Below the pieces are notes generated by a model. That model had not been told where the DNA came from. It saw only the letters and a list, made by a program, of their open reading frames with translations, and ran no database searches. 39,129 nucleotides of DNA, from sequence record PX309103.1; one strand, 5' to 3'. A program made the position numbers and the translations under genes. Below, piece after piece: positions 2,534 through 35,354 of the stretch. Source of the DNA: a phage. Numbering within the stretch: the first letter of the stretch is position 1; the number at the start of each line of letters is the position of its first letter.

Positions 2534-5215
2534 ATGAGCGTCATCTCTATTGACAAACACGACTTCTCTGATGTGTCAAACGCCATTGAGCCGTTTAACC
2601 TGCTGGCTGACCACTACGGGCAAGACCTTGCAGTCAAACAGCTTCAGCTTGAGCATGAGGCATACACTGAAGGCGAGCGACGTTTCATCAAAAACCTTGA
2701 GCGACAGACTGAGCGCGGGGAACTGGCAGACAATCAGGTCGCCAAGCCTTTGATGCAGACTCTGGTCCCTAAGATTGCGCAAGCAGTCAAGGAGTGGCAC
2801 GAAGGTCCAGACGGGAAGCTGTCAACCTCTCGTCCTAGCGTAGCGTTCACCATGTTGAGCACTGAAGAGAAGGCCGTCAAGGACCGCTCTATGCGCATCT
2901 CCTGTGAGTCCGCTGCGGTTATCATACTGAAGGTAATACTCTCCAAGCTGGTCAAGCCCGAAGGGATACCGATTACACCTATGGCCTCCGCGATAGGTCG
3001 CACACTTGAGGACGAAATCCGCTTCGGTCGCATCCGTGACAAAGAGAAAGAGCACTTCAAGAAGGCGATAGCTGATAACCTGAATAAGCGTGCCGGGGCA
3101 TCCTACAAGAAAGCCTACATGCAAGCGGTAGAGGCATCCATGCTGGAGCAAGGCCAACTGGAAGATGCGTGGGGGACTTGGAGTCCTACAGAGGCTGTCC
3201 ACGTTGGCATTAAGATGCTCGAGATTGTCATCCAGTCAACACAACTTGTCGAGCTTAAGCGTTACGGTGCTGGCAATGCAGCGACTGACGTAGAGATGGT
3301 CCACCTGTCAGACTTCTGGGTCAAGAAGATGGCACAACGAGGATTCAGCCTTGCGGGTATCGCTCCTGTCTACCAGCCTTGCGTCGTTCCACCAAAGCCG
3401 TGGACTGGTGTCGTAGGCGGTGGGTATTGGGCCAAAGGTCGAAGACCATTGCCACTGATTCGCTTAGGGTCTAAGTCTGCGGTAGCACGTTACGAAGACG
3501 TGTACATGCCTGAAGTCTATGACGCTGTGAATATCATCCAGAATACACCTTGGAAAGTGAACAAGAAGGTATTGGACGTGGTGAACATGGTCGAGAAGCT
3601 GAACAACACGCCTATTGATGACATCCCTCAGATGGAGCCGCTGAAGCCTGAGGACTATGCTGGTGAGACCGAAGAAGAACTCAAGGCATGGAAGAAGGCT
3701 GCTGCTGGTATCTACCGCCGAGAGAAGGCCCGGCAGTCACGTAGATTGTCACTGAGCTTTATCGTTAACCAAGCGAACAAGTTCTCTCAGTTCAAGGCCA
3801 TCTGGTTTCCGTACAACATGGACTGGCGCGGTCGCGTCTACGCTGTGCCGATGTTCAACCCTCAAGGCAACGACATGCAGAAGGGTCTCCTGACTCTGGC
3901 AGTCGGCAAGCCTATTGGTGCTGACGGTTTCAAATGGCTGAAGGTCCACGGTGCAAACTGCGCGGGTGTCGATAAAGTCACCTTCGAGGAGCGCATCAAG
4001 TGGGTGGAAGACAACCACGAAAACATCATGGCTGCTGCTAAGGCACCGATGGATAGTATTGAGTGGTGGGGCAAGTTAGACTCTCCGTTCTGTTTCCTCG
4101 CGTTCTGCTTCGAGTATGCTGGCGTAATGCACCACGGCCTGTCTTACTCCTGCTCGCTGCCGATAGCGTTCGATGGGTCCTGCTCTGGTATTCAGCACTT
4201 CAGTGCGATGCTTCGTGACCACATCGGTGGACATGCAGTAAACCTGACGCCATCCGGTATGGTACAAGACATCTACCGCATTGTGTCTGACCGCATTGAG
4301 GAGGAGCTTAAAGTCCTGCTGATTAACGGTACTGACAACGAGATGGTCACTCACGAGGACAAGAAAACTGGTGAGATTACCGAACGTATCAAGCTGGGGA
4401 CACGAGAGCTGGCCCGTCAGTGGCTGACCTACGGGATGTCACGTAAGGTCACTAAGCGTTCAGTCATGACTCTGGCATACGGGTCGAAAGAGTACGGCTT
4501 CGCAGACCAAGTTTACGAGGACATCGTGATGCCAGCGATTGACTCAGGGTCTGGCGCTATGTTCACCGAGCCGAGCCAAGCGTCTCGCTTCATGGCTAAG
4601 ATGATTTGGGAAGCTGTGAGTGTGACTGTAGTTGCTGCGGTTGACGCGATGAAGTGGCTTCAAGGTGCTGCCAAGCTGCTGGCTGCTGAGGTGAAGGACA
4701 AGAAGACTGGAGAAATCCTGAAGCCTTGCCTTCCGGTACACTGGGTAACACCTGATGGTTTCCCGGTCTGGCAGGAATACCGCAAGAAGGATACCACTCG
4801 TCTGAACCTGATGTTCTTAGGGTCATTCAACCTTCAGCCTACCGTCAACAGAGGTACGAAGAAAGAGCTGGACAAACACAAGCAGGAGTCAGGAATTAGC
4901 CCGAACTTCGTCCACTCACAAGATGGTAGCCACCTCCGCAAGACTGTAGTCCACACGCACCGCAAGTATGGCGTGATGTCATTCGCAGTGATTCACGATA
5001 GCTTCGGGACCATCCCGGCTGACGCTGAGTATCTGTTCCGTGGCGTCCGTGAGACGATGGTCGAGACCTACCGCGACAACGATGTGCTGCTTGACTTCTA
5101 CGAGCAGTTTGAATACCAGCTTCATGAGAGCCAGCGCGACAAGTTACCTGAGCTACCGAAGAAAGGTAAACTGAATATCGAGGACATCTTGTCTTCAGAC
5201 TTTGCATTCGCTTAA
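2534..5215 (+). CDS. Single-subunit DNA-dependent RNA polymerase (T7 gp1 family)
   Basis: 893 aa; motifs DGSCSGIQHFSAM, HDSFGT and C-terminal ...DFAFA match T7 RNAP. Confidence 0.97.
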   Translation: MSVISIDKHDFSDVSNAIEPFNLLADHYGQDLAVKQLQLEHEAYTEGERRFIKNLERQTERGELADNQVAKPLMQTLVPKIAQAVKEWHEGPDGKLSTSRPSVAFTMLSTEEKAVKDRSMRISCESAAVIILKVILSKLVKPEGIPITPMASAIGRTLEDEIRFGRIRDKEKEHFKKAIADNLNKRAGASYKKAYMQAVEASMLEQGQLEDAWGTWSPTEAVHVGIKMLEIVIQSTQLVELKRYGAGNAATDVEMVHLSDFWVKKMAQRGFSLAGIAPVYQPCVVPPKPWTGVVGGGYWAKGRRPLPLIRLGSKSAVARYEDVYMPEVYDAVNIIQNTPWKVNKKVLDVVNMVEKLNNTPIDDIPQMEPLKPEDYAGETEEELKAWKKAAAGIYRREKARQSRRLSLSFIVNQANKFSQFKAIWFPYNMDWRGRVYAVPMFNPQGNDMQKGLLTLAVGKPIGADGFKWLKVHGANCAGVDKVTFEERIKWVEDNHENIMAAAKAPMDSIEWWGKLDSPFCFLAFCFEYAGVMHHGLSYSCSLPIAFDGSCSGIQHFSAMLRDHIGGHAVNLTPSGMVQDIYRIVSDRIEEELKVLLINGTDNEMVTHEDKKTGEITERIKLGTRELARQWLTYGMSRKVTKRSVMTLAYGSKEYGFADQVYEDIVMPAIDSGSGAMFTEPSQASRFMAKMIWEAVSVTVVAAVDAMKWLQGAAKLLAAEVKDKKTGEILKPCLPVHWVTPDGFPVWQEYRKKDTTRLNLMFLGSFNLQPTVNRGTKKELDKHKQESGISPNFVHSQDGSHLRKTVVHTHRKYGVMSFAVIHDSFGTIPADAEYLFRGVRETMVETYRDNDVLLDFYEQFEYQLHESQRDKLPELPKKGKLNIEDILSSDFAFA

Positions 5216-5227
5216 CAGGAGAGAGTT

Positions 5228-5443
5228 ATGAAATTTGCACACAAGCAGGCTGGCGTTAAGGGCGGGACTCAAATCGTGACCGTAACAGAACACAACGGCA
5301 AGGGTCTGGTGAAGACCACGGTCATTCCTACCGAGATGTCAAAGCAGCTTAACGTCCCATTCAAGACCCTAGTCTGTCTTGTGGAATCTAGCCACGAGAA
5401 ATACCTGAAAGACGCAGTGTCCAAGCTGGAGCAGACCAAATGA
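5228..5443 (+). CDS. Hypothetical protein (71 aa) between RNAP gene and the phi1.1-type promoter
   Basis: ORF with AGGAGA RBS; T7 has no gene at this position as far as I recall. Confidence 0.5.
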   Translation: MKFAHKQAGVKGGTQIVTVTEHNGKGLVKTTVIPTEMSKQLNVPFKTLVCLVESSHEKYLKDAVSKLEQTK

Positions 5444-5516
5444 CAGACTTACAGTTACTGGCCTTGTGGTTGGGAGCACTAGCAGTATTCACTTTAATCC
5501 AACGCAGAAGAGGTTA

Positions 5517-5541
5517 ACCCTAAACTATCACTATAGGATTA
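5517..5541 (+). promoter_or_regulatory. Phage RNAP promoter (phi1.1-like)
   Basis: TAAACTATCACTATAGGATT. Confidence 0.8.
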
Positions 5542-5546
5542 GACTC

Positions 5547-5573
5547 AAGGTCATGACTCAAAGTCGTGGCCTT
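5547..5573 (+). promoter_or_regulatory. Conserved hairpin, RNase III-site-like (R1.1 position)
   Basis: AAGGUCAUGAC / GUCGUGGCCUU 11-bp stem with G-U pairs and UCAAA loop; one of 3 copies of the same element. Confidence 0.6.
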
Positions 5574-5611
5574 CATGATTAACCCTAACTCATTCAATCA
5601 GGAGCTACACC

Positions 5612-5791
5612 ATGTATCAGAACACTATCAACTTCGAGCGCATCCGTGAACGTCAGCAGACTGAAGATTATATTCCGAAGGGACGCAAGCTGAACAAGAC
5701 CAAGCGTGGCGGTGGTGTAAAGGGTGCTTTCCGTAACGCTGAAGGAAAAGACTCTATGGTCAACCAAGAGAAGTATTTCGTAGGAGCATAA
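5612..5791 (+). CDS. gp1.1-like small basic protein (59 aa)
   Basis: Contains KGRKLNKTKR, matching recalled T7 gp1.1; AGGAG RBS. Confidence 0.7.
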   Translation: MYQNTINFERIRERQQTEDYIPKGRKLNKTKRGGGVKGAFRNAEGKDSMVNQEKYFVGA

Positions 5792-5795
5792 CGCT

Positions 5796-6059
5796 ATGGG
5801 CCGACTTTATAGTGGCAACCTAAACGCTTTCAAAGCAGCGTGTAACAGGCTCTATCAGTTAGACTTCGCTGTCATATCTCAGGAGTTTCAAGACCTTACG
5901 TCACGCCAAGAGTGTATGAGACTCAGGGTAGAGGACCGGGCGGGTAACATATTCGCTCTTGAGTCCTTCGCACACTACGATGAAGACGTACTGTACAACA
6001 CTGCAACAGAATTCCTCAATGGTCTCGCTGACCAACTCGACACATGGAGCAAATCATAA
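5796..6059 (+). CDS. gp1.2-like protein (inhibitor of host dGTP triphosphohydrolase family)
   Basis: N-terminus MGRLYSGNLNAFKAA... matches recalled T7 gp1.2. Confidence 0.8.
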   Translation: MGRLYSGNLNAFKAACNRLYQLDFAVISQEFQDLTSRQECMRLRVEDRAGNIFALESFAHYDEDVLYNTATEFLNGLADQLDTWSKS

Positions 6060-7162
6060 TGACAACGACTATCAAAACTAACCCGCACCGCGCTGTAGAT
6101 TACTCTGAGTCTGGCGTTAAGAAAGCACTGGAAGCAGCCGGGTCTCTGGAAGCTGAAGTGAAGTACGATGGTGTGCGCCTGAATCTCCCGGTCTTCCCTA
6201 CTGGTGAGACTCAATGGTTGAGCCGTGAGTCTAAACCTCTCCCAGCGCTTCAGCATCTGAAGTCAGAACATGGTAGTCCTACCGAATTAACAAACTGTGG
6301 AGACTGGCGCTGGTTCCTGAAGCAAGCAGGACATGAGGTCTCTGGCCTAATGATTGATGGCGAGGTGATGGTCAAAGGCGTGGACTTCAACACGTCTTCC
6401 GGTCTTATCCGCACCATGTGGTCTGACCGCAAGAACTACAAGTGGAACATGAACCCTAAGGCAGATATGGAGACCAAGAAGTCTAACAAGGTTCCCTTCC
6501 AGATTAGCCCTGAGTCCCTACGAGTGGTCGTCTACGGGGTCATCGACCTTAACGTCATCAACGACCCAAAAGCCGAAGGTCCTATTCATAGCGTCACACG
6601 CCTGAAGGCCGAAGCTATCGTCCCTCTCCTCCAGAAATACTTCCCGGAAATCGACTGGGTTCTGTCTGAGTCACACACGGTCTATGACCTTGAGTCGCTC
6701 AGCTCCCTGTACGAAGAGAAGCGTCTGGAAGGACACGAGGGTCTGGTAGTCAAGGACCCGCTTGGTAAATACAAGCGTGGCAAGAAGTCTGGCATGTGGA
6801 AAATGAAGCCTGAGGAGACCATAGACGGGACAGTGTGTGGCCTCGTGTGGGGGACTCAGGGTAAGGCGAACGAAGGTAAGGTCATCGGCTTCGAGGTGCT
6901 ACTTGAGGACGGCATGGTGGTTAACACCTGTGGCCTGACTGAAGAACAGAAGGACGAATTCACAGCTAAAGTCGCTGAATCTAGTGGCTATACCTTGGCT
7001 GGTGGCCCTGTGGTTATTCAGGATGGGACCGAGAAGACCAACCCATACGAAGGCTGGCAGTGTGAAGTCCTCTTCATGGAGCGGTTCCCAGATGGCTCAC
7101 TTCGTCACCCTAGCTTCAAGTGCTGGCGTGGAACTGAAGACAATCCGACCATTAAGAGCTAA
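6059..7162 (+). CDS. ATP-dependent DNA ligase (T7 gp1.3 family)
   Basis: Adenylation motif KYDGVR (EVKYDGVRLNL); start placed at ATG 6059 (GGAG 9 nt upstream, TAATG overlap with previous stop) rather than the ORF-track start 6044. Confidence 0.9.
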   Translation: MTTTIKTNPHRAVDYSESGVKKALEAAGSLEAEVKYDGVRLNLPVFPTGETQWLSRESKPLPALQHLKSEHGSPTELTNCGDWRWFLKQAGHEVSGLMIDGEVMVKGVDFNTSSGLIRTMWSDRKNYKWNMNPKADMETKKSNKVPFQISPESLRVVVYGVIDLNVINDPKAEGPIHSVTRLKAEAIVPLLQKYFPEIDWVLSESHTVYDLESLSSLYEEKRLEGHEGLVVKDPLGKYKRGKKSGMWKMKPEETIDGTVCGLVWGTQGKANEGKVIGFEVLLEDGMVVNTCGLTEEQKDEFTAKVAESSGYTLAGGPVVIQDGTEKTNPYEGWQCEVLFMERFPDGSLRHPSFKCWRGTEDNPTIKS

Positions 7163-7171
7163 CTAAATGTC

Positions 7172-7210
7172 AACCCAGTGGTCTTAGGACTGCTGGGTTT
7201 CTTTGCTTTG
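7172..7210 (+). terminator. Intrinsic terminator after ligase (T7 TE-like)
   Basis: Stem CCCAGUGGUC/GACUGCUGGG with UUAG loop followed by UUUCUUUGCUUUG. Confidence 0.65.
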
Positions 7211-7245
7211 TGCTAGCAAGCTATCGTTTGGGGGAACCAGCCTGA

Positions 7246-7270
7246 CCCTAAGCTATCACTATAGGACAAC
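7246..7270 (+). promoter_or_regulatory. Phage RNAP promoter
   Basis: TAAGCTATCACTATAGGACA. Confidence 0.75.
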
Positions 7271-7293
7271 CATCAACAACCTAAGGAGACTCT

Positions 7294-7554
7294 ATGTCTA
7301 AGAACTTAATGTTCAACCGTTATACCGATACCTTCCACCTGTCCAACAACCCGTTCGCTTGCATTAAGCGCAACGAGAAGCTGGGCTACTTCGGGAAGGC
7401 CGTTAAGTTATCACCTACAGTATTCGCTCTGATTACTCCGAGCAAAGCGGAGGAGGCTCGCCAGAAGCGTGAGACCAACGTACCTGTGGTCTACACTAAG
7501 TGGCCTCGCGTTCGCCTGTTCGTTGAGTTCGTGAAGGAGGTATTCAATGACTAA
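7294..7554 (+). CDS. Hypothetical protein (86 aa), gp1.6-position
   Basis: ORF with AAGGAG RBS directly downstream of a phage promoter. Confidence 0.55.
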   Translation: MSKNLMFNRYTDTFHLSNNPFACIKRNEKLGYFGKAVKLSPTVFALITPSKAEEARQKRETNVPVVYTKWPRVRLFVEFVKEVFND

Positions 7555-7858
7555 GCATGCTCCCGGCTGTACGATATGGAACGGGGCTGAAGTATGTAGC
7601 TGTAGCAACCCGCCTAATACAGACGATGGTGTACGCAAGCCGTCCCACTATCAGGTCTTTGACGGTGTGGAATCCATTGAGATTATCGCCCGGTCCATGA
7701 CTGTCAGTGAGTTCCGTGGTTTCTGCATGGGTAACGTCCTGAAGTATCGACTCCGGGCTGGTAAGAAGTCCGAGCTGGCTACTATGGAGAAGGACCTGAA
7801 CAAAGCCGCCTTCTATCAGGAGCTGTTCGACCAACATAAAGGTAAGTGTCATGCTTAA
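7547..7858 (+). CDS. DUF3310-like protein (possibly related to gp1.7 C-terminal region)
   Basis: Motif ...GNVLKYRLRAGKK...DLNKAAFY resembles the DUF3310 signature from memory; GGAGG RBS. Confidence 0.5.
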   Translation: MTKHAPGCTIWNGAEVCSCSNPPNTDDGVRKPSHYQVFDGVESIEIIARSMTVSEFRGFCMGNVLKYRLRAGKKSELATMEKDLNKAAFYQELFDQHKGKCHA

Positions 7859-7955
7859 TGATATTCTGTACTTCGGATTAATCTGTGCAGGAGTAGGTGC
7901 ATTATTGCGTTTAATGTATTGGGCGATAGAGGCGGAATATGGTAAAACCAAGTGA
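7851..7955 (+). CDS. Small hydrophobic protein (34 aa), hypothetical
   Basis: ORF MLNDILYFGLICAGVGALLRLMYWAIEAEYGKTK; start overlaps previous gene end. Confidence 0.3.
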   Translation: MLNDILYFGLICAGVGALLRLMYWAIEAEYGKTK

Positions 7956-8033
7956 GTGGTGCCGGGAGATGTATGAGAAGACTCTCAACCCGGACTACAT
8001 CACGTTATACAACCAATGGAAGGAGCGCGGTTT

Positions 8034-8192
8034 ATGACTGACGTAGAGAAGAAGTACATCGTGGAGCTTGAGGGTCACATTCAGTCCTTCGAGGTTCCGG
8101 TGTACGCAAAGTCTCTTGAAGAGGCTACCCTGAAGTCCCAAGAGTATGAGGACGCTGGGTTTGTGGTCGGACGGATTCGTCCTGAGACCTAA
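8034..8192 (+). CDS. Gp2-like inhibitor of host RNA polymerase (52 aa)
   Basis: [17 protein letters not shown]...[10 protein letters not shown] matches recalled T7 Gp2. Confidence 0.8.
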
Positions 8193-8210
8193 ACTATCAC
8201 TGTAGGACAG
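8188..8210 (+). promoter_or_regulatory. Phage RNAP promoter variant (phi2.5-like)
   Basis: TAAACTATCACTGTAGGACA; one mismatch in the TATA core. Confidence 0.55.
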
Positions 8211-8250
8211 ACGTCCAGTTCGTAACTTTTAAATTAGGAGATTTACACCA

Positions 8251-8949
8251 ATGGCTAAAGAGCAACTGAAGACTTTCACCACTCCGGTAGCTGGTATCGT
8301 TGAGCCTTACGCATGGCTTAACAAAGCAGACACCAAGTTCAACGAGCGTGGTGAACACAAAGTCAACCTGACATTCGACCTGAGCAACCCGAAGGTCCGT
8401 AAGATGATTGATGTCTTACAGAAGATTCACGACGATGCGTATGCGAAAGCACTTGCAGACCACGAGAAGAACCCGCCTCAGGTTCAGCGTGGCAAGAAGC
8501 CTATTGAACCACGAGAAGGCGACATGCCGTGGATTGAGAATGGTGATGGTACTGTTACCCTGAAGTTTAAATGCTTCGCGTCTTACCTGAAGGATGGTAA
8601 GTCAGAGCCTATCATATTACGGTTCTACGACACCGATGCTAAGTTAATCCGTGACGTCCCGAATATTGGCGCTGGCTCAAAGCTGAAGGTCAAGTTTAAA
8701 GTCCTGCCGTTCAAGTGGAACGCTGCGACTGGTGCAAGCGTTAAGCTCCAGCTTGAGTCCTGCCTTCTGGTAGAACTGAAGGAGTGGAAAGGCGATGGTG
8801 CAGGTGGCGATGGTGGTTGGGGTGATGATGAAGACCTCGGTACCGGCTACAAAGCGTCAACCGATGGTGACTTCGGGTCTGATGACTTCGGTGACGATGG
8901 TTCCGAAGGTGGTTCCGAGTCCAACTCTGGTGGCGATTACGACTTCTAA
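8251..8949 (+). CDS. Single-stranded DNA-binding protein (gp2.5 family)
   Basis: 232 aa; conserved blocks GKKPIEPREGDMPW, SVKLQLES; acidic C-terminal tail ending DYDF. Confidence 0.93.
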   Translation: MAKEQLKTFTTPVAGIVEPYAWLNKADTKFNERGEHKVNLTFDLSNPKVRKMIDVLQKIHDDAYAKALADHEKNPPQVQRGKKPIEPREGDMPWIENGDGTVTLKFKCFASYLKDGKSEPIILRFYDTDAKLIRDVPNIGAGSKLKVKFKVLPFKWNAATGASVKLQLESCLLVELKEWKGDGAGGDGGWGDDEDLGTGYKASTDGDFGSDDFGDDGSEGGSESNSGGDYDF

Positions 8950-9401
8950 TGGCCCAATGGTCTGCAAAACGGGGGCACTCTGTGGGTGCCTACCGCTCTG
9001 GACTTGAAGCCAAGAACCAGCAGTGGCTGGAACAGAACGGCGTCAAAGCGGAGTACGAAAGCCATTATATCAACTATGTGATTCCGGCTTCCGACCACAA
9101 GTACACACCAGATTTTATTCTTCCTAACGGTATCATCGTGGAGACCAAAGGTATCTTCGATAGTGATGACCGTAAGAAGCACCTTCTGGTACGAGAACAG
9201 CACCCAGAGTTAGACATCCGGTTCGTGTTCTCAAGTTCCCGCTCCAAGCTATACAAAGGGTCTCCGACCACGTATGGTGCATGGTGCGAAAAGAACGGCT
9301 ATAAGTATGCCGATAAGTTCATCCCGGTTGAGTGGCTACGAGAGGAGACTGTACGTCTGCCTTCAGGTATCCTCATCCCCAAGAAGAAAGGAGTTAAGTG
9401 A
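8949..9401 (+). CDS. Endonuclease I, Holliday-junction resolvase (gp3 family)
   Basis: 150 aa; YTPDFILPNGIIVETKG...DDRKKHLLVREQHPELDIRFVFSSSRSKLYKGSPT matches T7 gp3. Confidence 0.93.
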   Translation: MAQWSAKRGHSVGAYRSGLEAKNQQWLEQNGVKAEYESHYINYVIPASDHKYTPDFILPNGIIVETKGIFDSDDRKKHLLVREQHPELDIRFVFSSSRSKLYKGSPTTYGAWCEKNGYKYADKFIPVEWLREETVRLPSGILIPKKKGVK

Positions 9402-9871
9402 TGACTCAGAAATATAGACTTAAGGTTGACCGCCACGGGTGGCCTAAAGGTGCTATCGTTACGAAATGTGCGAAAGACCCTGTACCATCATCTGGACTTG
9501 TTCTGGTGGAATCCACTGAGCGTGGCACCTACAAACACGGAGCAGCAGGTCATAACACTCAGCCTGACGGTATGTGGGGGGCGTGGGTTTTAAAAGAAAA
9601 TCTTGAGGAAATTGTAGAGGATAAACCTCAAGTCCTGCCAGCCTCAAGTGTCCCTCCTGTCACCGTTAAACGTGAAGTCCTGACCATCGACAAGATTGGT
9701 GTAGGCCAGACGTTCATCGTCCACGGAAAGCCTGAAGAAGTTTACGTGAAGATTAGCAACTCACACGTCTTCAACCATAAGCGTCTCCAGATGCACACCA
9801 CGGACGCACAGCGCTTCACCCAGCACCTGAATCTAGTGGTCGTAGAATTGGTGGTGTACAATGGTAAGTAA
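9398..9871 (+). CDS. Hypothetical protein (157 aa) inserted between endonuclease I and lysozyme
   Basis: ORF overlaps both neighbours (ATGA at start); I recognise no motif. Confidence 0.55.
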   Translation: MMTQKYRLKVDRHGWPKGAIVTKCAKDPVPSSGLVLVESTERGTYKHGAAGHNTQPDGMWGAWVLKENLEEIVEDKPQVLPASSVPPVTVKREVLTIDKIGVGQTFIVHGKPEEVYVKISNSHVFNHKRLQMHTTDAQRFTQHLNLVVVELVVYNGK

Positions 9872-10319
9872 GGTACAGTTCAACCCACGGTCCCGGACTG
9901 ACGCTATCTTCGTTCACTGTTCGGCTACCAAGCCAGATATGGACATCGGGGTAGAGACCATCCGTATGTGGCACAAGCAGCAAGGCTGGCTGGACGTAGG
10001 CTACCACTTTATCATCAAACGTGATGGCACTGTGGAAGAGGGTCGCCCGGTCAATGTCGTAGGGTCACACGTTAAGGACTGGAACTCACGGTCTGTAGGC
10101 GTCTGCCTTGTAGGCGGAATCAACGCTAAGGGTCAGTTTGAAGCTAACTTCACTCCAGCCCAGATGAACTCCCTGCGCAACAAGCTGGCTGACCTGAAGG
10201 TCCTGTATCCTCAGGCAGAAATCAAAGCACACCATGACGTAGCACCTAAGGCGTGTCCAAGTTTCGACTTGCAACGCTGGCTGTCTACCAATGAACTGGT
10301 CACTTCCGACCGTGGTTAA
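9861..10319 (+). CDS. Lysozyme / N-acetylmuramoyl-L-alanine amidase (gp3.5 family)
   Basis: 152 aa; TDAIFVHCSATKP, GYHFIIKRDGTVEEGR, APKACPSFDL, ELVTSDRG match T7 lysozyme. Confidence 0.95.
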   Translation: MVSKVQFNPRSRTDAIFVHCSATKPDMDIGVETIRMWHKQQGWLDVGYHFIIKRDGTVEEGRPVNVVGSHVKDWNSRSVGVCLVGGINAKGQFEANFTPAQMNSLRNKLADLKVLYPQAEIKAHHDVAPKACPSFDLQRWLSTNELVTSDRG

Positions 10320-25920: not shown

Positions 25921-28203
25921 ATGGCTAGTAATATTGAATCAGCTCTGGCTAATCGGACTATGGGTCGCGGCAGAGCGCCGGGTAAAACTATCGCCGTCAA
26001 CTATCAAGCAGCCAACGTTCAGGCTCCGACTGGGGACTCCGGTCTGGCTCGTGCGTTAACCAACTTCGTTGAGTCTGGGACTGGATTGTACAAGCAGTTC
26101 AAGGACGAGGAGAAGACCAGAGCTGACGAGCGGTCTAACGAGATTATCCGTAAGCTGACACCTCAGCAAAGACGTGAGGCTATCCAGAACGGTACACTGC
26201 TGTATCAGGACGACCCTTACGCTATGGAAGCACTTCGAGTCAAGACAGGTCGTAACGCTGCCTTTGCGGTGGATGACGAGATTAACGTTAAGATTCAGAA
26301 CGGTGAGTTCCGTACACGTCAGGACATGGAAGAGTATCGCCACCAGCGACTTCAGGACGCCGCTAAGTCCTATGCTGAAGAGGCTGGTATCAACCCTACC
26401 GACGAGTTCTTCCAGCGTGGGTTCAACGATAACATCACAGACCGCAACATCGCTATCTATGGGTCTTTCAATAAGTATTTCAGCAAGCAGTCTGAAGAGA
26501 CAGCAATGTTGAACACTCGTATTGAGATGAACTCATTCCTGAACGATGGCGACCTGATGCGTTCACCCGAGTCTGGCAAGACATTCATGGCCTACCTTCG
26601 TGATGGACTGACTACTGCTGCTATCCCCTCGGACCAGCGAGCGCGGGAGGTCATTACCCAGACGGTCCGTGACGCAATCCAGAAGTCAGGCGGCTCAACC
26701 TTCCTACAGCAAGTACGAGGCGAGCGAATCACCCTTAACGGCGTTGATGCTACAGTCGAAGAGATTGTAGGACCTGATGTCTTCAACGCTGCTATTGTCG
26801 AGGCACAAGGAACTGAGTACAAGCTGGTGGCTAAGTATCAGGAAGACTTAGCGTTAGGCGTTCAGTCTGCGATTCTTCAGGACGACCCCACCATCGGCCT
26901 TGCCCAGATTCAGAAACTCAAGGAGCAGAACAACCTGCTTCAGCCGGGTGAAGAACTAACGCCTCAGCGTCAGATGCTTATTAATGCCGAAGCCAGCTTG
27001 CTGGAAGCGGTCAAGCGTAAGTCCGCTGAACAGGCTAAGGAGAACACTAAGTTAATCCAGACCCAGAACAAGCAACTTGTCATCGACCAAGTGTATCAGC
27101 GACGTCTGGCTGGGGACAACGTGTCCACCAGCTATGAGGACCTTCCGGTCTCTGAAGCTACAGGAGAGTTCAAGCGTTCAGACATGAACAACTATGCGTC
27201 TGCTAAGCTACAGCAGATTGACCAGATGGACATCCCTGAGGCTTCTAAGGACGCCCAGAAGGTTGCATTGTTAAGGGCTGACACTAACAACGGTCCGTTC
27301 CGTAATGCCTTCCAGACTCTTACTCAGGACGCTGCTGGTGAGTGGCAAGCTGCGGTCATCCGTGGGCAGTACGACCCAGACAAGATGCAACGCTTCGAAT
27401 CTCTTCGTCGTGCCTACACTCAGGACCCTTCAAGTTTTGCTGCTCTGTATCCTGACCAAGCTCAGTTGTTCTCTACGTTCGACCAGATGGACAAGATAGG
27501 TCTGGACCCTCAGACGATGATTGAAGCTGATAAGCAAGCTGCAAGTCAAAGCCGTGAGATGCGCATGGAGTCAGACAAGGCGTGGCAGGAGTTGAAGAAC
27601 GACTCTCGGAATAAGGACCTTTCGCGTCTTCCTACGTCTCTGGACGCAAGTGCTCGTAAGGTCTGGGACTCATGGTACTATCGTACAGGTAACGCTGACG
27701 CTGCAACTCAGCAGACTCAACGCTGGCTGAATGAGAACACCGTAACGTTCCAGTCTGAAGGTTCTGATGGTAAGTCAATCGGCATGGTGTCCAAGCACCA
27801 GCTTATGGTCGGGGATAACCCAGAGTCGTGGCAGGTTGGTCGAGACATTATCGACACCGCTCGTAAGCAGCTCATTAAGGCCAACCCTTGGGTAGTGAAC
27901 TCTCAGTTGTCCGTTGTTGAACAGAACGGCTCTATCTTCCTCCAAGACGCTACAGGGACTATTCGTATTCGCTACGATAAAGAACTTGTAGGTAAACTCT
28001 ACCGCGAACAACAGCAGAAGGCACAAGATGCCGCATACGCTCAGGCAGAACGTGACGCTAACAAGCGAGCGCGTATCGTCGGGACTAAAGCTGCTGGTGA
28101 CAAACGTCGAGCTGACCGAGAGGCCAACATCGAGAAGCGCGGTGGGATGTACAATGACGTCTCACTGGAGGGTATCGCAAACGTACTAATTGGTAAGGAG
28201 TAA
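25921..28203 (+). CDS. Internal virion (core) protein C (gp15 family)
   Basis: 760 aa, in synteny with T7 gene 15. Confidence 0.85.
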   Translation: MASNIESALANRTMGRGRAPGKTIAVNYQAANVQAPTGDSGLARALTNFVESGTGLYKQFKDEEKTRADERSNEIIRKLTPQQRREAIQNGTLLYQDDPYAMEALRVKTGRNAAFAVDDEINVKIQNGEFRTRQDMEEYRHQRLQDAAKSYAEEAGINPTDEFFQRGFNDNITDRNIAIYGSFNKYFSKQSEETAMLNTRIEMNSFLNDGDLMRSPESGKTFMAYLRDGLTTAAIPSDQRAREVITQTVRDAIQKSGGSTFLQQVRGERITLNGVDATVEEIVGPDVFNAAIVEAQGTEYKLVAKYQEDLALGVQSAILQDDPTIGLAQIQKLKEQNNLLQPGEELTPQRQMLINAEASLLEAVKRKSAEQAKENTKLIQTQNKQLVIDQVYQRRLAGDNVSTSYEDLPVSEATGEFKRSDMNNYASAKLQQIDQMDIPEASKDAQKVALLRADTNNGPFRNAFQTLTQDAAGEWQAAVIRGQYDPDKMQRFESLRRAYTQDPSSFAALYPDQAQLFSTFDQMDKIGLDPQTMIEADKQAASQSREMRMESDKAWQELKNDSRNKDLSRLPTSLDASARKVWDSWYYRTGNADAATQQTQRWLNENTVTFQSEGSDGKSIGMVSKHQLMVGDNPESWQVGRDIIDTARKQLIKANPWVVNSQLSVVEQNGSIFLQDATGTIRIRYDKELVGKLYREQQQKAQDAAYAQAERDANKRARIVGTKAAGDKRRADREANIEKRGGMYNDVSLEGIANVLIGKE

Positions 28204-28207
28204 CATA

Positions 28208-31200
28208 ATGGCGACTCGTGGTATTCGCAATAACAATCCGGGTAACATCCGGGTAAGTAAGGACCAATGGGAAGGAATGACTGGAGATGATGGCGCATTC
28301 GTCACCTTCGATAGTCCAGAGTCTGGCGTCCGAGCTTTAGGTAAAAACCTGCTGTCCTACGGTCGCCAAGGTTATGACTCCATCGAGAAGATTATCAACC
28401 GATGGGCACCTCCTAACGAGAACGAAACTAAGGCTTATATCGACTCAGTGGTGGCTGCAACTGGTATTCCAGCTACCCAGAGTCTCGACCTATCGAACCC
28501 GGACACCCTGTCTGCTCTGGCGCAAGCTATTAGCTTCCATGAGACAGGCTCCCGGTACAATCCAGAAGTCTATCAGAAGGGAGTCGCAAGAGCACTCAAT
28601 GGTATCAGCCCAAAGACTCCACCAGTAAGCGCTAACGTATTTGACGCACTCACGGAAGGACTCAAGGCTAAACCTAAAGTAGCTCTGGGCGAGAACCTTC
28701 CGACCGCTGCTGGTCTAAACATTGAGGGTCAAGCACCTGAAGCTCCCAACGAATCGTTCGGTGAGATGTTCTATAAGTCTACTGGCGAGACCATGCAGGA
28801 ACGAGAGGATCGCTCTACGTGGTTCGGTTTCGGCTCGGCTACAGAAGCTGAAGTGAAGAACTCTATGGTCGGCGTGGCTATCCGCGCTGGTCAGACCGAG
28901 GACTCGCTTGATGTCATTGGCGATGTGTTCAACCCTACCCGCTGGAACAACCATAAGTGGTCTCGTGAGGAGCTGGACCAGATTCGTAACGCTGGAGTTC
29001 TCCCTCAGTATTACGGTGTCATTACTGGTGGCTCCCCTCAGAACCTGACCGAGCTTATTAACTTAGCGCTTGAGAACCAGAAGTTGGACCAAGAGAAGGC
29101 CAAGGCTGGGACTGGTGCTCAGTTAGCTGCTGGTGTTATTGGCGCTGGTGTGGACCCTCTGACCTACGTTCCTATCGCTGGACAGATTGGTAAAGGTGGC
29201 AAGCTGGTCAACAAGATGTTCACCGTGGCTGCTCAATCTGGAGCACTTGCTGGTGTATCAGAGGCGGCCCGTACCTCAGTGGCTGGTGGTGATGCTCATG
29301 TGGCTGAGGCTATCCTTGGTGGTGCTCTCTTCGGCGGAGGTATGACTGCTATCGCTGATGGTTTAGGCAGAGCCTTAGGTCGCAACACTAATGAGTTTGC
29401 TGGTCCAGCTACACGTCTGGAAGCTCGTGAGACCGCTCGTAACGTTGATGGTCAGGACCTGTCTCGTCTCCCTATTCAGGAAGGTGAGCCGACCTTTAGT
29501 CATCAAGGCGTTAAGTTCGCTGACGTTCCGAATGAGCCGGGTAGTGTGCGGCTGGAGGATGGTTCAATCCTGATTGGTGAGAACCCTTTGAATCCTAAGA
29601 CACGTAAAGTCTTTGACGAAGTGATTGAGCCTGAACGTGCCGCTGCTGGTGTGAACCTTGGTGGACTTACCGAGATTGGCCTGAAGCTGCTTCGGTCTGA
29701 GAACCCAGAGATTCGTGGAGTCGCTGCTGACTTAGTGCGTTCACCAACCGGTATGCAGTCAGGGGCCTCAGGTAAAATCGGGACCACTGCGTCAGACGTA
29801 TTCGAGAGACTTCGTGCTGTGGACCATCGGTTCTACAACGACATCGACGATGCGGTTACTGAGGCACTAAAGGACCCATACTTCCAGACAGCATTCTGGC
29901 GAGACTCTGGCGCATTCCGTCAGGACATCTACCAGCGTGTGTCTATGGCTATTGAAGACGGAAGTGGGATCCTGAAGGCTGAACTGACTCCGGGAGAACT
30001 GAAAGTCTATGACCTACTGAAGAACCAGTTTGACGCCAAGCGTGAGATGATGGAGAACCCGGCGATGTTTGGTCGTCCAGACGCTCAGTCTATCTTTCCG
30101 GGTAGCCGCTTCAAGGGAACCTACGTCCCTCATGTGTATAGCAAACAGATGAAGGAGCTGTACACCAAGGAGCTTGGGAGTCCAGAGGCGTTGCAGGAGG
30201 CCATCAAGAAGTCATGGTTGACCAGCTATGCGTCTCGACCTGAAGTCAAGAAACGCGTGGACGAGGCACTCTTAGAGTCTGACCCTACGTTGACTCCAGA
30301 GGGACTTGCTGCTGCGGTCGATAAGTACGCCAACGATAAGGCTTACGGTATCTCCCACACCGAGCAGTTCGAACGTTCATCCGTAATGGAAGAGAACATC
30401 AACGGTCTGGTTGGTCTGGAGAACAACAGCTTCCTTGAGGCTCGTAACCTGTTCGATAGCGATATGTCAATCGTCCTACCTAACGGTCAGACCTTCAGTG
30501 TCAACAACCTGCGTGAGTGGGACATGGACAAGATTGTCCCGGCCTACAACCGTCGAGTTAATGGCGATATTGCTATCATGGCTGGTACAGGCAAAACCAC
30601 GAAGGACATGAAGGACTTGGTTGAGACCATGATGAACAAGGCTGGGGATGACGGTAAGTTGAAAGGTGAAGTATCTACCTTACGTGACACCTTGAAGATT
30701 CTAACTGGTCGTTCTCGACGTGATGGTGCTGATGATGCAGCCTTCGCTACCGTGATGCGCACAATGACAGACCTATCGTTCTTCGCTAAGAATGCCTACA
30801 TGGGTGTTCAGAACTTAACGGAGATTGGTGGTATGCTGGCTCGTGGCAACGTTCGTGCAATGCTGCATGGAGTCCCGATTTTCCGTGACCTAGCCTTCCG
30901 TAACAAGAAGGTTGGGGCCTCAGAGATTAAGGACCTGCACAATGTTATCTTCGGTAAGGAACTGGATGACTCAATCCGTCCGTCTAAACAGGATGTCATT
31001 GACCGTCTGCGATCTTACAGTGACCTCGGTCGTGGTACAGCTACAGCTCTGGGGACTGCCAAGTATTACACTGGCGAACTTGCAGTACGCTCTCCGTTCA
31101 CTAAAGTCCTCAACGGTACGACCAACTACCTGTTAGATGCTGGACGTCAAGGCTTCCTGTCTGACATCGTGGAGCATAGCCTGACTGGTAGTAAGCGTAA

Positions 31201-32095
31201 GTTCGATGACCGCTGGCTTAAGACCGCTGGTATCTCTGACGAGCAGTGGAAGGGCATTAAGTCCCTCATCCGTGAGTCAGTGACTCGTGGTCCAGACGGG
31301 AAGTACACCATCAAGGATAAGAAGGCGTTCAGTCAGGACCCAAGGGCTATGGACCTGTGGCGTATGGGTGACACCATCGCTGATGAAACGTTACTCCGTC
31401 CTCATAAGCTGTCCAACATGGACGCCAAGGCTTATGGTCCTATCGCTAAGACTGTCCTTCAGTTTAAGAACTTCGTCATCAAGTCCATCAATGGGCGAAC
31501 CATGCGTACCTTCTATAACGCCACGAAGAACAACCGAGCGATGGACGCTGCCCTGTCCACTGTGATGTCTATGGGTCTTGCTGGTATCTACTACATGGCT
31601 CAGGTTCATATCAAGGCTTACGCTATGCAGGATGGTCGAGACCGTGACTACCTCAAGCAAGCTCTAGACCCGACGATGATTGGATATGCAGCTCTATCAC
31701 GTAGTTCACACCTTGGTGGACCACTTGGGGTAGCTAACATTCTAGGTGGCATCGCTGGATATGAGGACACTAAGATGCTCCGTTCGTCTATCCTACCTCG
31801 TTCGCCCACAGAGAAGCCTGAACGTGCCATCGCGTATGGTGCAGCTACAAGTGACCCTGTGATGAATGTTGTTGGTAACTTCTTGGAGCAGGTTCCAGCT
31901 TTCGGATATGCTGCTAACGTTGGTGCTTCGGCTTATAACTTGGCTGGCTACCTGAAGGCCGACACTCGTGTCAACGAGCGTGACTACATAACCGGGATGT
32001 ATAACACCTTCCGTGAACTGGTACCGAACGACCCGATTACTCAGAAGTTGTTACTGGGAACGTTTGAGGAGCAAGGTATCCACATCAAGGACTAA
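28208..32095 (+). CDS. Internal virion (core) protein D (gp16 family) with divergent N-terminal domain
   Basis: About 1295 aa; from about residue 200 onward similar to T7 gp16 (GAGVDPLTYVP, RLEARETARN, PHVYS); start ATG 28208 with AAGGAG RBS. Confidence 0.9.
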   Translation: MATRGIRNNNPGNIRVSKDQWEGMTGDDGAFVTFDSPESGVRALGKNLLSYGRQGYDSIEKIINRWAPPNENETKAYIDSVVAATGIPATQSLDLSNPDTLSALAQAISFHETGSRYNPEVYQKGVARALNGISPKTPPVSANVFDALTEGLKAKPKVALGENLPTAAGLNIEGQAPEAPNESFGEMFYKSTGETMQEREDRSTWFGFGSATEAEVKNSMVGVAIRAGQTEDSLDVIGDVFNPTRWNNHKWSREELDQIRNAGVLPQYYGVITGGSPQNLTELINLALENQKLDQEKAKAGTGAQLAAGVIGAGVDPLTYVPIAGQIGKGGKLVNKMFTVAAQSGALAGVSEAARTSVAGGDAHVAEAILGGALFGGGMTAIADGLGRALGRNTNEFAGPATRLEARETARNVDGQDLSRLPIQEGEPTFSHQGVKFADVPNEPGSVRLEDGSILIGENPLNPKTRKVFDEVIEPERAAAGVNLGGLTEIGLKLLRSENPEIRGVAADLVRSPTGMQSGASGKIGTTASDVFERLRAVDHRFYNDIDDAVTEALKDPYFQTAFWRDSGAFRQDIYQRVSMAIEDGSGILKAELTPGELKVYDLLKNQFDAKREMMENPAMFGRPDAQSIFPGSRFKGTYVPHVYSKQMKELYTKELGSPEALQEAIKKSWLTSYASRPEVKKRVDEALLESDPTLTPEGLAAAVDKYANDKAYGISHTEQFERSSVMEENINGLVGLENNSFLEARNLFDSDMSIVLPNGQTFSVNNLREWDMDKIVPAYNRRVNGDIAIMAGTGKTTKDMKDLVETMMNKAGDDGKLKGEVSTLRDTLKILTGRSRRDGADDAAFATVMRTMTDLSFFAKNAYMGVQNLTEIGGMLARGNVRAMLHGVPIFRDLAFRNKKVGASEIKDLHNVIFGKELDDSIRPSKQDVIDRLRSYSDLGRGTATALGTAKYYTGELAVRSPFTKVLNGTTNYLLDAGRQGFLSDIVEHSLTGSKRKFDDRWLKTAGISDEQWKGIKSLIRESVTRGPDGKYTIKDKKAFSQDPRAMDLWRMGDTIADETLLRPHKLSNMDAKAYGPIAKTVLQFKNFVIKSINGRTMRTFYNATKNNRAMDAALSTVMSMGLAGIYYMAQVHIKAYAMQDGRDRDYLKQALDPTMIGYAALSRSSHLGGPLGVANILGGIAGYEDTKMLRSSILPRSPTEKPERAIAYGAATSDPVMNVVGNFLEQVPAFGYAANVGASAYNLAGYLKADTRVNERDYITGMYNTFRELVPNDPITQKLLLGTFEEQGIHIKD

Positions 32096-32159: not shown

Positions 32160-35100
32160 ATGTCCACGATTACACAATTCCCTTCAGGAAACACTCAGTA
32201 CAGGATTGAGTTCGACTACCTAGCCAGAACGTTTGTTGTTGTTACGCTGGTGAATAGCTCTAACCCTACCCTGAACCGTGTACTGGAAGTTGGTCGAGAT
32301 TACCGATTCCTTAATCCAACGATGATTGAGATGTTGGTTGACCAATCAGGTTTCGACATCGTTCGTATTCACCGTCAGACTGGAACTGACTTAGTGGTAG
32401 ACTTCAGGAATGGCTCAGTGTTGACAGCTAGTGACCTGACCAATTCAGAGCTTCAGGCTATCCATATTGCAGAAGAAGGTCGAGACCAAACGGTTGACTT
32501 AGCGAAGGAATATGCCGATGCTGCTAGTAGCTCTGCTGGCAACGCTAAGGATAGCGAGGACGAAGCACGACGAATCGCTGAGAGTATCAGGGAAGCTGGT
32601 CTAATTGGCTATATTACCCGTCGCTCCTTCGAGAAAGGCTACAACGTTACAACATGGAGCGAGGTCCTGCTATGGGAAGAGGATGGTGATTATTACCGCT
32701 GGGATGGTACGCTTCCAAAGAACGTTCCTGCTGGTTCAACTCCTGAAACTTCCGGTGGGATTGGATTAGGTGCGTGGGTTAGTGTTGGTGATGCTGCTTT
32801 AAGAAGTCAGATTTCAAACCCGGAAGGGGCAATACTCTACCCTGAATTACATAGAGCACGCTGGCTTGATGAAAAAGATGTCCGTGGTTGGGGTGCTAAA
32901 GGGGATGGTGTCACTGATGATACAGCAGCGTTAACGAGCGCATTAAACGACACACCGGTTGGACAAAGGCTTAATGGCAATGGGAAGACATATAAGGTCA
33001 CATCCCTGCCTGACATTAGTCGCTTCATCAACACTCGTTTCGTTTATGAGCGCATTCCCGGACAACCTCTTTATTATGTCTCTGAAGAATTTGTTCAGGG
33101 TGAGCTGTTCAAGATAACGGACACCCCTTATTACAATGCGTGGCCTCAGGATAAAGCGTTCGTATATGAGAATGTGATATATGCACCTTACATGGGTAGC
33201 GATCGTCATGGTGTTAGCCGTCTTCACGTATCATGGGTTAAGTCTGGTGATGATGGTCAAACATGGTCTACTCCAGAGTGGTTAACTGATCTGCATCCAG
33301 ATTACCCTACAGTGAACTATCATTGTATGAGTATGGGTGTATGTCGCAACCGTCTGTTTGCCATGATTGAAACACGTACTTTAGCCAAGAACGCATTAAC
33401 CAATTGTGCATTGTGGGATCGCCCCATGTCTCGTAGCCTGCATCTCACTGGTGGTATTACGAAGGCAGCAAATCAGCGATATGCAACAATCCATGTACCT
33501 GATCACGGGCTGTTCGTGGGTGACTTTGTTAACTTCTCTAACTCTGCGGTAACAGGTGTGTCAGGTGATATGAAGGTTGCAACGGTAATAGATAAGGACA
33601 GCTTCACGGTTCTTACACCTAACCAGCAGGACTCAGATTTGAATAACGCTGGAAAGAACTGGCATATGGGTACTTCATTCCATAAATCGCCATGGCGTAA
33701 GACAGATCTTGGCTTAATTCCTCGTGTGACTGAAGTTCATAGCTTTTCTGCTATTGATAACAATGGCTTTGTTATGGGTTATCACCAAGGTGATGTAGCT
33801 CCACGCGAAGTTGGACTATTCTACTTCCCTAACGCTTTCGATAATCCGGCTAACTATGTTCGTCGTCAGATACCTTCAGAGTATGAGCCAGATGCCTCAG
33901 AACCCTGCATCAAGTATTACGATGGTGTATTGTACCTCATCACCCGTGGCACTAGGAGCGATAGACTAGGTAGCTCTTTGCATCGTAGTAGAGACATAGG
34001 TCAGACTTGGGAGTCACTGAGATTTCCACATAATGTTCATCATACTACATTGCCTTTTGCTAAAGTAGGGGATGACCTTATTATGTTTGGTTCAGAACGT
34101 GCAGAAAATGAATGGGAAGCAGGTGCACCAGATGATCGTTACAAGGCATCTTATCCTCGCACCTTCTATGCACGCTTGAATGTAAACAATTGGAATGCAG
34201 ATGGTATTGAATGGGTTAACATCACTGACCAGATTTATCAGGGCGGAATAGTTAACTCAGGTGTAGGTGTTGGTTCGGTAGTTGTGAAGGATAGTTACAT
34301 CTACTACATGTTTGGTGGAGAGGACCATTTTAACCCATGGACATATGGAGATAACTCAGCGAGGGATCCATTCAAATCAGACGGTCATCCCTCAGATTTG
34401 TATTGCTACAAAATGAAGATTGGCCCAGACAATCGTGTTTCAAGGGATTTCAGGTATGGTGCTGTACCTAACAGAGCTGTTCCCGTGTTTTTTGATACGA
34501 ATGGGATTCGCACTGTTCCTGCGCCAATGGAATTTACAGGGGATTTGGGTTTAGGTCATGTGACCATTAGAGCCAGCACCAGTAGTAACATTCGCTCTGA
34601 AGTTTTAATGGAAGGTGAATATGGGTTTATCGGAAAATCTATACCGACTGATAACCCGGCAGGGCAGCGCATCATGTTTTGCGGGGGTGAAGGCACCAGT
34701 GCAACGACTGGCGCACAGATTACGCTTTATGGTGCAAATAACACCGACTCAAGGCGAATAGTTTACAACGGAGATGAGCATCTATTTCAGAGTGCTGATG
34801 TTAAGCCTTATAACGATAACGTCACTGCGCTTGGTGGGCCTAGAAACCGTTTCACCACTGCATACCTCGGAAGTAACCCTATTGTTACTTCTAACGGGGA
34901 GAGGAAAACAGAGCCGGTAGTTTTTGATGATGCTTTCCTTGATGCCTGGAGTGACGTTCACTACATCATGTACCAGTGGTTAGATGCTGTTCAACTGAAA
35001 GGCAATGATGCTCGTATTCACTTCGGGGTTATTGCTCAGCAAATTCGTGATGTATTCATTGCACATGGGCTGATGGACGAAAACAGTACGAATTGTCGTT

Positions 35101-35354
35101 ATGCTGTTCTGTGCTATGACAAGTATCCACGGATGACCGATACGGTATTTTCGCACAATGAAATCATTGAACACACTGACGAGGAGGGTAATGTCACCAC
35201 TACGGAAGAACCTGTATACACCGAGGTGGTTATTCACGAAGAGGGTGAGGAGTGGGGTGTTCGGCCTGACGGAATTTTCTTTGCTGAAGCCGCTTATCAG
35301 AGAAGAAAACTGGAAAGAATCGAAGCCAGACTTTCTGCTCTTGAACAGAAGTAA
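32160..35354 (+). CDS. Tailspike endosialidase (endo-N-acetylneuraminidase) with gp17-like N-terminal adaptor and C-terminal intramolecular chaperone domain
   Basis: 1064 aa; N-terminus FDYLARTFVVVTL resembles T7 gp17 N-domain; central region with GDGVTDDT; C-terminal domain typical of auto-cleaving chaperone domains; recalled resemblance to phage K1F endoNF. Confidence 0.9.
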   Translation: MSTITQFPSGNTQYRIEFDYLARTFVVVTLVNSSNPTLNRVLEVGRDYRFLNPTMIEMLVDQSGFDIVRIHRQTGTDLVVDFRNGSVLTASDLTNSELQAIHIAEEGRDQTVDLAKEYADAASSSAGNAKDSEDEARRIAESIREAGLIGYITRRSFEKGYNVTTWSEVLLWEEDGDYYRWDGTLPKNVPAGSTPETSGGIGLGAWVSVGDAALRSQISNPEGAILYPELHRARWLDEKDVRGWGAKGDGVTDDTAALTSALNDTPVGQRLNGNGKTYKVTSLPDISRFINTRFVYERIPGQPLYYVSEEFVQGELFKITDTPYYNAWPQDKAFVYENVIYAPYMGSDRHGVSRLHVSWVKSGDDGQTWSTPEWLTDLHPDYPTVNYHCMSMGVCRNRLFAMIETRTLAKNALTNCALWDRPMSRSLHLTGGITKAANQRYATIHVPDHGLFVGDFVNFSNSAVTGVSGDMKVATVIDKDSFTVLTPNQQDSDLNNAGKNWHMGTSFHKSPWRKTDLGLIPRVTEVHSFSAIDNNGFVMGYHQGDVAPREVGLFYFPNAFDNPANYVRRQIPSEYEPDASEPCIKYYDGVLYLITRGTRSDRLGSSLHRSRDIGQTWESLRFPHNVHHTTLPFAKVGDDLIMFGSERAENEWEAGAPDDRYKASYPRTFYARLNVNNWNADGIEWVNITDQIYQGGIVNSGVGVGSVVVKDSYIYYMFGGEDHFNPWTYGDNSARDPFKSDGHPSDLYCYKMKIGPDNRVSRDFRYGAVPNRAVPVFFDTNGIRTVPAPMEFTGDLGLGHVTIRASTSSNIRSEVLMEGEYGFIGKSIPTDNPAGQRIMFCGGEGTSATTGAQITLYGANNTDSRRIVYNGDEHLFQSADVKPYNDNVTALGGPRNRFTTAYLGSNPIVTSNGERKTEPVVFDDAFLDAWSDVHYIMYQWLDAVQLKGNDARIHFGVIAQQIRDVFIAHGLMDENSTNCRYAVLCYDKYPRMTDTVFSHNEIIEHTDEEGNVTTTEEPVYTEVVIHEEGEEWGVRPDGIFFAEAAYQRRKLERIEARLSALEQK

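Follow-up and report, generated by a model that had tools for sequence, protein, structure and literature searches.

What stands at the N-terminus of the internal virion protein gp16 of the phage in sequence record PX309103.1, if not the lytic transglycosylase domain that heads gp16 of phage T7? The sequence studied is phage DNA of 39,129 nt (this whole stretch is called the window below), and it is that of a K1F-like Kayfunavirus, a T7-group phage; between positions 27000 and 33000 its DNA shares 95.7% identity with that of coliphage K1F and as much as 98.1% with that of other Kayfunavirus isolates. An initial annotation, made from the letters alone, had reported a replaced N-terminal domain of gp16 at 28208-28800 and suggested a swap to another cell-wall-degrading or ejection-associated module. 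The open reading frame (ORF) and the N-terminal sequence quoted there are present in the window. We find that the head of the protein is an Enc34-endolysin-type (PHA02564) domain of about 130 residues, joined at a GI[ST]PK motif to the T7-type tape and body, which supports the proposed swap to a different cell-wall-degrading module. The protein and its parts are located as follows:

28208..32095, + strand: gene 16, encoding internal virion protein D, a DNA-ejectosome component of 1295 amino acids (aa), assigned from the ORF list, PHROG 342 and identity to T7
28208..28597, + strand: Enc34-type (PHA02564 / 'V virion protein') muralytic domain, residues 1-130, standing in for the SLT domain of T7
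28580..28825, + strand: linker and homologue of the T7 'molecular tape' (T7 residues 157-228), approximately residues 125-206, assigned from BLASTP, a shuffle test and low predicted local distance difference test (pLDDT) scores
28826..32092, + strand: gp16 body, residues 207-1295, corresponding to the membrane-inserting and cytoplasmic parts in T7

The protein matched PHROG 342 (E=0), and several methods agreed on where its similarity to T7 gp16 starts. BLASTP aligned the two proteins with 53% identity over 1182 aligned columns, beginning at residue 125 of the window protein and residue 152 of T7, and phmmer against the PDB chains of T7 gp16 placed the break at the same residue. When the first 500 residues were compared by tblastn with 50,697 phage records, about 225 records were colinear from residues 1-17; alignments to T7, Przondovirus, Berlinvirus, Yersinia phages and others began at query residue 123-125 and those to Pseudomonas relatives at residue 132-134. 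Residues 201-1295 were 55% identical to T7 and 51.5% identical to Morganella phage MmP1. Upstream of the break, BLASTP of residues 1-200 against T7 residues 1-200 related the two heads only at E=1.2, and the Smith-Waterman score of residues 1-124 against T7 1-151 was 28, compared with a shuffle mean of 28.2 (z=-0.05; 486 of 1000 shuffles scored as high). For residues 125-200 against T7 152-228, z was 11.1 and none of 1000 shuffles reached the score. Homology to T7 is thus undetectable over residues 1-124 (28208-28579). The initial annotation was right that a homology break exists and that a segment has been replaced, but the T7 alignment starts at residue 125 and not at about residue 200, and the replaced segment is accordingly shorter, about 125 residues at 28208-28579, with the folded domain reaching to about 28597. 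The retained linker and tape stretch opens with the conserved GI[ST]PK motif, and its low pLDDT fits an extended segment. Because residues 125-200 are homologous to the T7 tape stretch and residues 1-124 are not, comparison at the sequence level indicates that only the enzymatic head is exchanged and that the stretch holding the putative gp15-binding tape is kept.

Searches of Pfam and NCBIfam gave no match in gp16 or its head, so the head was identified via PHROGs, a PDB sequence search and a fold search. The closest PDB sequence was 7q47_A, the catalytic domain of the Hafnia phage Enc34 endolysin (phmmer E=8.1e-14, residues 3-124), and 'lysis protein A' of phage BSPM4 was 34% identical to the head (tblastn, E=2e-11). 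In PHROGs, residues 2-176 matched inside phrog_873, phrog_992 'head protein' and phrog_2276 tape measure, with further matches to phrog_7182 'tail injection transglycosylase' and phrog_1044; since these are segments within several virion protein families, the head can be regarded as a mobile module. An AlphaFold (AF2) model of residues 1-200 was built from an alignment of 119 homologues, all stand-alone proteins from metagenomes and bacterial genomes, and reached pLDDT >90 over most of residues 11-130, with low values for residues 131-200. A single-sequence AlphaFold run on the same residues had a mean pLDDT of 36 and was unusable; the alignment-based run was used instead. With the AF2 head model, Foldseek returned 7q47 as the sole significant match. 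The predicted fold is mostly helical, lysozyme alpha-lobe-like and superposable on PDB 7Q47, and the GH23 fold was not recovered by the structure search with this model. Profile comparison and structure prediction, the checks proposed along with the initial annotation, pointed to an Enc34 endolysin fold and showed no SLT likeness. The 119 homologues themselves are proteins of 129-226 aa that carry the NCBI name 'structural protein' and have no Pfam model.

The Enc34 domain family (NCBI CDD PHA02564) is muralytic (Cernooka et al. 2022, PMC8943055). The catalytic domain of Enc34 ORF39 (ORF39deltaC) lyses outer-membrane-permeabilised E. coli, Pseudomonas and Hafnia; Glu131 was proposed as the catalytic residue, and Trp79 and Tyr95 are conserved and catalytically important (PMC8943055). 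A second member, M4Lys of Salmonella phage BSPM4, degrades purified murein as M4LysdeltaTMD, and mass spectrometry indicates release of N-acetylglucosamine (GlcNAc) (Bai et al. 2020, PMC7143992). By alignment mapping, all three Enc34 positions have counterparts in the gp16 head, together with a signature motif near its start:

28229..28252, + strand: signature motif NNNPGNIR, residues 8-15, nearly invariant in 119 sequences
28403..28405, + strand: W66, equivalent to the substrate-positioning aromatic Trp79 of Enc34
28436..28438, + strand: Y77, equivalent to Tyr95 of Enc34, invariant in 119 of 119 sequences
28541..28543, + strand: E112, counterpart of Glu131, the residue proposed as catalytic in the Enc34 endolysin, invariant in 119 of 119 sequences

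Within NNNPGNIR, N8, N13 and R15 were invariant in the 119 sequences and the remaining five positions were at least 96% conserved, and position 66 was occupied by W in 106 homologues and by Y in 13. E112 sits in a motif H-E-[NT]-G close to the C-terminal end of the domain and is the sole invariant Glu of the head; W21, G23, G40, R42, A67-P68 and N72 are also retained. Within Kayfunavirus the head is under purifying selection, with a ratio of nonsynonymous to synonymous substitutions (dN/dS) of 0.10-0.12 in comparisons with PRF-SP3 and SFP20, a value that is approximate since dS, at about 1.2, is near saturation. These data bear on the alternative that the Enc34-type head is catalytically inert and has a purely structural or binding role, as a 'wing' of the periplasmic tunnel or an anchor on the murein. 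Such a role would agree with the lack of an activity assay for any gp16 with this type of head, and with position 113, which is T in this gp16 and N in 110 of 119 relatives. It is difficult to reconcile with the retention of E112, Y77, W66, NNNPGNIR and the other conserved positions, with a dN/dS of about 0.1, and with close family members that are demonstrably muralytic, and we consider an inert head quite improbable.

Two further observations concern variation of the head inside Kayfunavirus. Synonymous sites included, the head has diverged further than the body next to it (dS about 1.2 for 28208-28579 versus 0.5-0.7 for 28808-29182), and head identities across records are bimodal, with 130 records at 95% or above and 87 at 60-90%. 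Together, these features hint at exchange of head alleles within Kayfunavirus.

We then asked how the head relates to the SLT/GH23 transglycosylase domain it stands in for. T7 gp16 (PDB 7K5C, 7EYB, 6YT5) has the same gene position and length class and is 53-55% identical from residue 125 to the C-terminus, but it carries a GH23 SLT head that matched Pfam SLT PF01464 at residues 15-127 (E=1.7e-31) and has E37 as its catalytic residue (PMC8954989), whereas the Enc34-type head of the window protein has no detectable similarity to it. Pfam SLT had no match in gp16 at E<=1, and neither did a local SLT hidden Markov model (HMM) at E<=10. When the profile of the Enc34-type alignment was compared with that of aligned T7-type heads, hhalign gave a probability of 0.34%. 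Over 11 representative gp16 proteins, the Enc34-type and SLT HMMs were mutually exclusive even at E<=10: the former matched only the window protein, IMM-002 and MmP1, the latter only T7, Przondovirus, Berlinvirus, Yersinia WW1, Poynor, Pf-10, MA1A and SRT7. The putative catalytic glutamates are also placed differently, at position 112 of about 130 residues here and 37 of about 150 in T7, so that the cores are not colinear, and the T7-style N-terminal E-S motif with downstream SLT motifs in order was not found in the head. The late E112, compared with the early E37 of T7, fits the circularly permuted core described for Enc34 relative to GH23 and GH73 (PMC8943055). The view that the N-terminus does not resemble the T7 lytic transglycosylase domain was thus borne out by BLASTP, the shuffle test, hhalign and Pfam alike.

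These comparisons leave little room for the reading that the head descends from the T7-type SLT/GH23 domain and has diverged strongly in place, with no swap. An ancient common origin of the Enc34-type, GH73 and GH23 domains was argued by Cernooka et al. from the shared catalytic Glu and aromatics (PMC8943055), and a forced global alignment of the two heads contains 26 identities in 94 aligned positions. Yet the local alignment scores just what shuffled sequence scores on average, a sharp breakpoint separates a tape and body with 30-55% identity to T7 from a head whose similarity is at noise level, and the head is 34-58% identical to domains of unrelated phage proteins; the hhalign probability, the exclusive HMMs and the non-colinear Glu point the same way. 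With neither sequence nor profile similarity and with a differing Glu placement, no alignment to a divergent homologous transglycosylase was obtained, and in-place divergence, to which we give hardly any credence, is effectively refuted. Any ancestry common to the two heads would be that of the lysozyme superfamily at large and not of this gene.

In phages K1E and K1-5 the SLT domain sits on the gp15 homologue. Relocation of this kind was considered for the window and rejected: a six-frame HMM search found no SLT-like sequence elsewhere in it, the best hit (E=0.57) being noise.

GH73 enzymes (FlgJ, T. maritima TM0633, C. difficile Ecd09610) had no significant sequence match to gp16 in the Pfam search, and the Enc34 type differs from GH73 in its missing beta-lobe and permuted helix order (PMC8943055). 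Three members of the 119-homologue set weakly matched Pfam Glucosaminidase PF01832, in keeping with a remote kinship to GH73.

The distribution of the head was surveyed by tblastn on the phage collection, since the metagenomic protein search gave short proteins only, namely hundreds of stand-alone homologues of 106-226 aa (and 10 fragments for SLT). The head was found in 752 phage records. These include gp16 of Kayfunavirus, gp16 of Morganella phage MmP1 and its relatives, Chivirus and Seuratvirus endolysins, phiV10-type and D3112/DMS3-type 'structural proteins', tape measure proteins of Aeromonas and Bordetella phages, and Vibrio phages of small size (about 10 kb); further multi-domain 'virion proteins', 523-1292 aa long, came from BFVD. 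The Kayfunavirus-type head-plus-body architecture is present in about 225 phage records. Two of the records with a Kayfunavirus gp16 96-100% identical to that of the window, PV615262.1 and OR786095.1, are named 'Acinetobacter phage vB_Aba_01KA' and 'Staphylococcus phage MBBL139'; these host labels look implausible for a coliphage-type genome, and contamination or mislabelling is possible.

Outside Kayfunavirus, an Enc34-type head occurs at the same position in MmP1 (Minipunavirus; 4956-8894), with 44% identity in the head and 51.5% in the body, and in Providencia phage PSTCR2 (from about 3965), with 43% and 28%, respectively. In neighbour-joining trees of the gp16 body, which have limited sampling and moderate support, the carriers of Enc34-type heads did not come out as a single clade. 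Pf-10, MA1A and SRT7, all SLT-bearing, branched deeper than Kayfunavirus, MmP1 grouped with the SLT-bearing T7/Przondovirus/Berlinvirus clade (bootstrap 64% with 1049 columns, 89% with 598 columns), and PSTCR2 was the most distant. The bodies of MmP1 and PSTCR2 thus lie apart from those of Kayfunavirus, which, within this limited sampling, implies that heads were exchanged at the same junction at least two to three times. SLT is the commoner head and occurs on several deep branches, which would favour replacement of SLT in the Kayfunavirus lineage. No compositional trace of recent transfer was seen, the G+C fraction being 0.50-0.52 over the head and 0.50-0.55 around it, and the exchange is therefore not recent. 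The PSTCR2 head has Leu in place of the Trp79 equivalent (TRLSPP).

Taken together, we consider it highly probable that this is a standard T7-type gp16 in which an Enc34-type glycosidase head replaces SLT and acts at entry. The head of T7 gp16 opens the murein, and its tape binds gp15 (PMC8954989). By analogy with T7, gp16 of the window would travel in the capsid core and leave through the tail when infection begins, and its head would cut a local opening in the murein during DNA ejection. This opening would let the gp15/gp16 periplasmic tunnel assemble, the tape then stitching the gp15 hexamer into that tunnel. E112 is predicted to act as the catalytic general acid, with W66 and Y77 lining the groove and positioning the glycan. 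From its relatives, the head is probably a glycosidase (GH73-like N-acetylglucosaminidase) and not a lytic transglycosylase. The likely target would be the bond between GlcNAc and N-acetylmuramic acid, and the products would be unlike the 1,6-anhydro-muropeptides of T7 gp16, that is, hydrolytic glycosidase chemistry would be expected here and lytic transglycosylase chemistry in T7. Enc34 ORF39 (7Q47) and M4Lys use the same domain as a lysis endolysin, with a transmembrane domain fused on its C-terminal side; in the window it forms the N-terminal head of an ejection protein of 1295 aa, and its attack would come from outside during entry instead of from inside during lysis.

That this domain is the genuine endolysin of Chivirus, Enc34 and Seuratvirus phages raises the alternative that the head, supplied by unassembled gp16, works as a second endolysin late in infection. 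Against this, it is fused to a 1165-residue ejection protein and has no N-terminal signal or transmembrane export device, and the window keeps both a Rz-family lysis (spanin-like) gene and its own lysis amidase:

9861-10319: T7-type (gp3.5-type) amidase for lysis

In addition, the gp16 homologues of Citrobacter phages SH3 and SH4, internal virion protein D of 1299 aa and 99% identical to gp16 of Cronobacter phage Dev2, were detected in virions by mass spectrometry (PMC4925675). A role as second endolysin is thus very improbable, and an entry role of the Enc34-type head is preferred.

Several points weigh against the entry-enzyme reading. The fold evidence is a prediction by AF2 and not an experimental structure, and Foldseek, with a PDB library to April 2026, did not list the near-identical chain of PDB 9vvp as a match. 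The dN/dS values, as said, are approximate. The reported bond specificity of M4Lys is inconsistent, being given as glucosaminidase plus endopeptidase in the text and as muramidase in a figure legend (PMC7143992). The searched literature held no experiment on any gp16 headed by an Enc34-type domain, and neither zymograms nor muropeptide analyses of K1F-like virions. Finally, T7 requires its head only for highly cross-linked murein (PMC8954989), and by the same analogy the contribution of the head may be conditional here, too.

A more far-reaching proposal is that SLT and Enc34-type heads are interchangeable cassettes, repeatedly exchanged just upstream of GI[ST]PK, and that the head type is a trait of host adaptation and not neutral. 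We regard this as rather unlikely. If it were true, the Enc34-type head would be a hydrolytic N-acetylglucosaminidase entry enzyme, possibly with endopeptidase activity as claimed for M4Lys, and its different chemistry could help where a lytic transglycosylase works poorly, for example on modified or highly cross-linked murein or in the presence of periplasmic inhibitors of lysozyme or transglycosylase.

The K1F-type gp16 protein, the Enc34 domain family and mosaic module exchange were all known before, and it is established that podovirus ejection proteins swap muralytic domains with one another (PMC8954989; PMC5380687). The swap is real but an ordinary module exchange, and the general picture of podovirus muralytic-domain mosaicism is unchanged; the value of the result is incremental and is that of a corrected annotation. 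An explicit link between K1F-type gp16 and the Enc34 family was not found in the searchable literature, outside which lies the K1F genome paper of 2005 (Scholl & Merril), which may note the difference. Many Kayfunavirus gp16 entries in GenBank are named 'peptidoglycan lytic exotransglycosylase' or 'peptidoglycan transglycosylase', though no SLT domain is detectable, and the name appears to have been transferred from T7. A survey of 2025 listed the 1295-aa gp16 type with no recognised domain (PMC12031403). For a relative of MmP1, a paper of 2017 stated an SLT motif in a gp16 homologue 70% identical to MmP1 gp16 (PMC5384007); in contrast, gp16 of MmP1 itself matches only the Enc34-type model. 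The present assignment corrects this widespread misannotation in Kayfunavirus and gives the putative entry enzyme of K1F-like phages a structurally characterised domain family with experimentally demonstrated muralytic activity. It suggests that phages use the Enc34-type module not only as an endolysin but also as an entry lysin carried in the virion, and the clean junction offers a natural design for head-swap tests of the ejectosome. K1F-like phages are used in work on therapy and diagnostics of K1 E. coli.

The start of gene 16 was checked against its surroundings. The ORF list opens gp16 at TTG 28190, but the real start is ATG 28208; it lies 7 nt past a Shine-Dalgarno sequence and 5 nt past the gp15 stop codon TAA (28201-28203):

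28195..28200, + strand: Shine-Dalgarno AAGGAG of gene 16, within the last codons of gene 15, read from the sequence

Start and length are supported by PDB 9vvp_L ('Gp29'), a near-identical protein that has 1295 aa, likewise begins with MATRG and was colinear with gp16 across residues 1-1295 (2850 bits, phmmer against PDB chains). PDB 9vvp contains four chains of this near-identical gp16, and no paper on it was found in the literature search. Chain L and gp16 of K1F and other Kayfunavirus are essentially the same protein as that of the window, and nothing substantive differs. The cluster has the order gp12-13-14-15-16-17; on the 5' side of gp16, Pfam matches to Phage_T7_Gp13 and T7_gp14 are followed by a gp15-sized ORF of 760 aa. 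gp16 is presumably, as in T7, an ejection protein packaged in the capsid core and ejected into the envelope.

The remaining features lie downstream of gene 16 and near the lysis amidase:

8949-9401: endonuclease I
9398-9871, + strand: ORF of 157 aa with a GTG start and no Pfam match, between endonuclease I and the gp3.5-type amidase
32160-35354, + strand: tailspike ORF of 1064 aa with a T7-gp17-like N-terminus, at the position of the K1F endo-N-acetylneuraminidase in matching records

The tailspike at the endo-N-acetylneuraminidase position implies a K1-capsule-specific phage.

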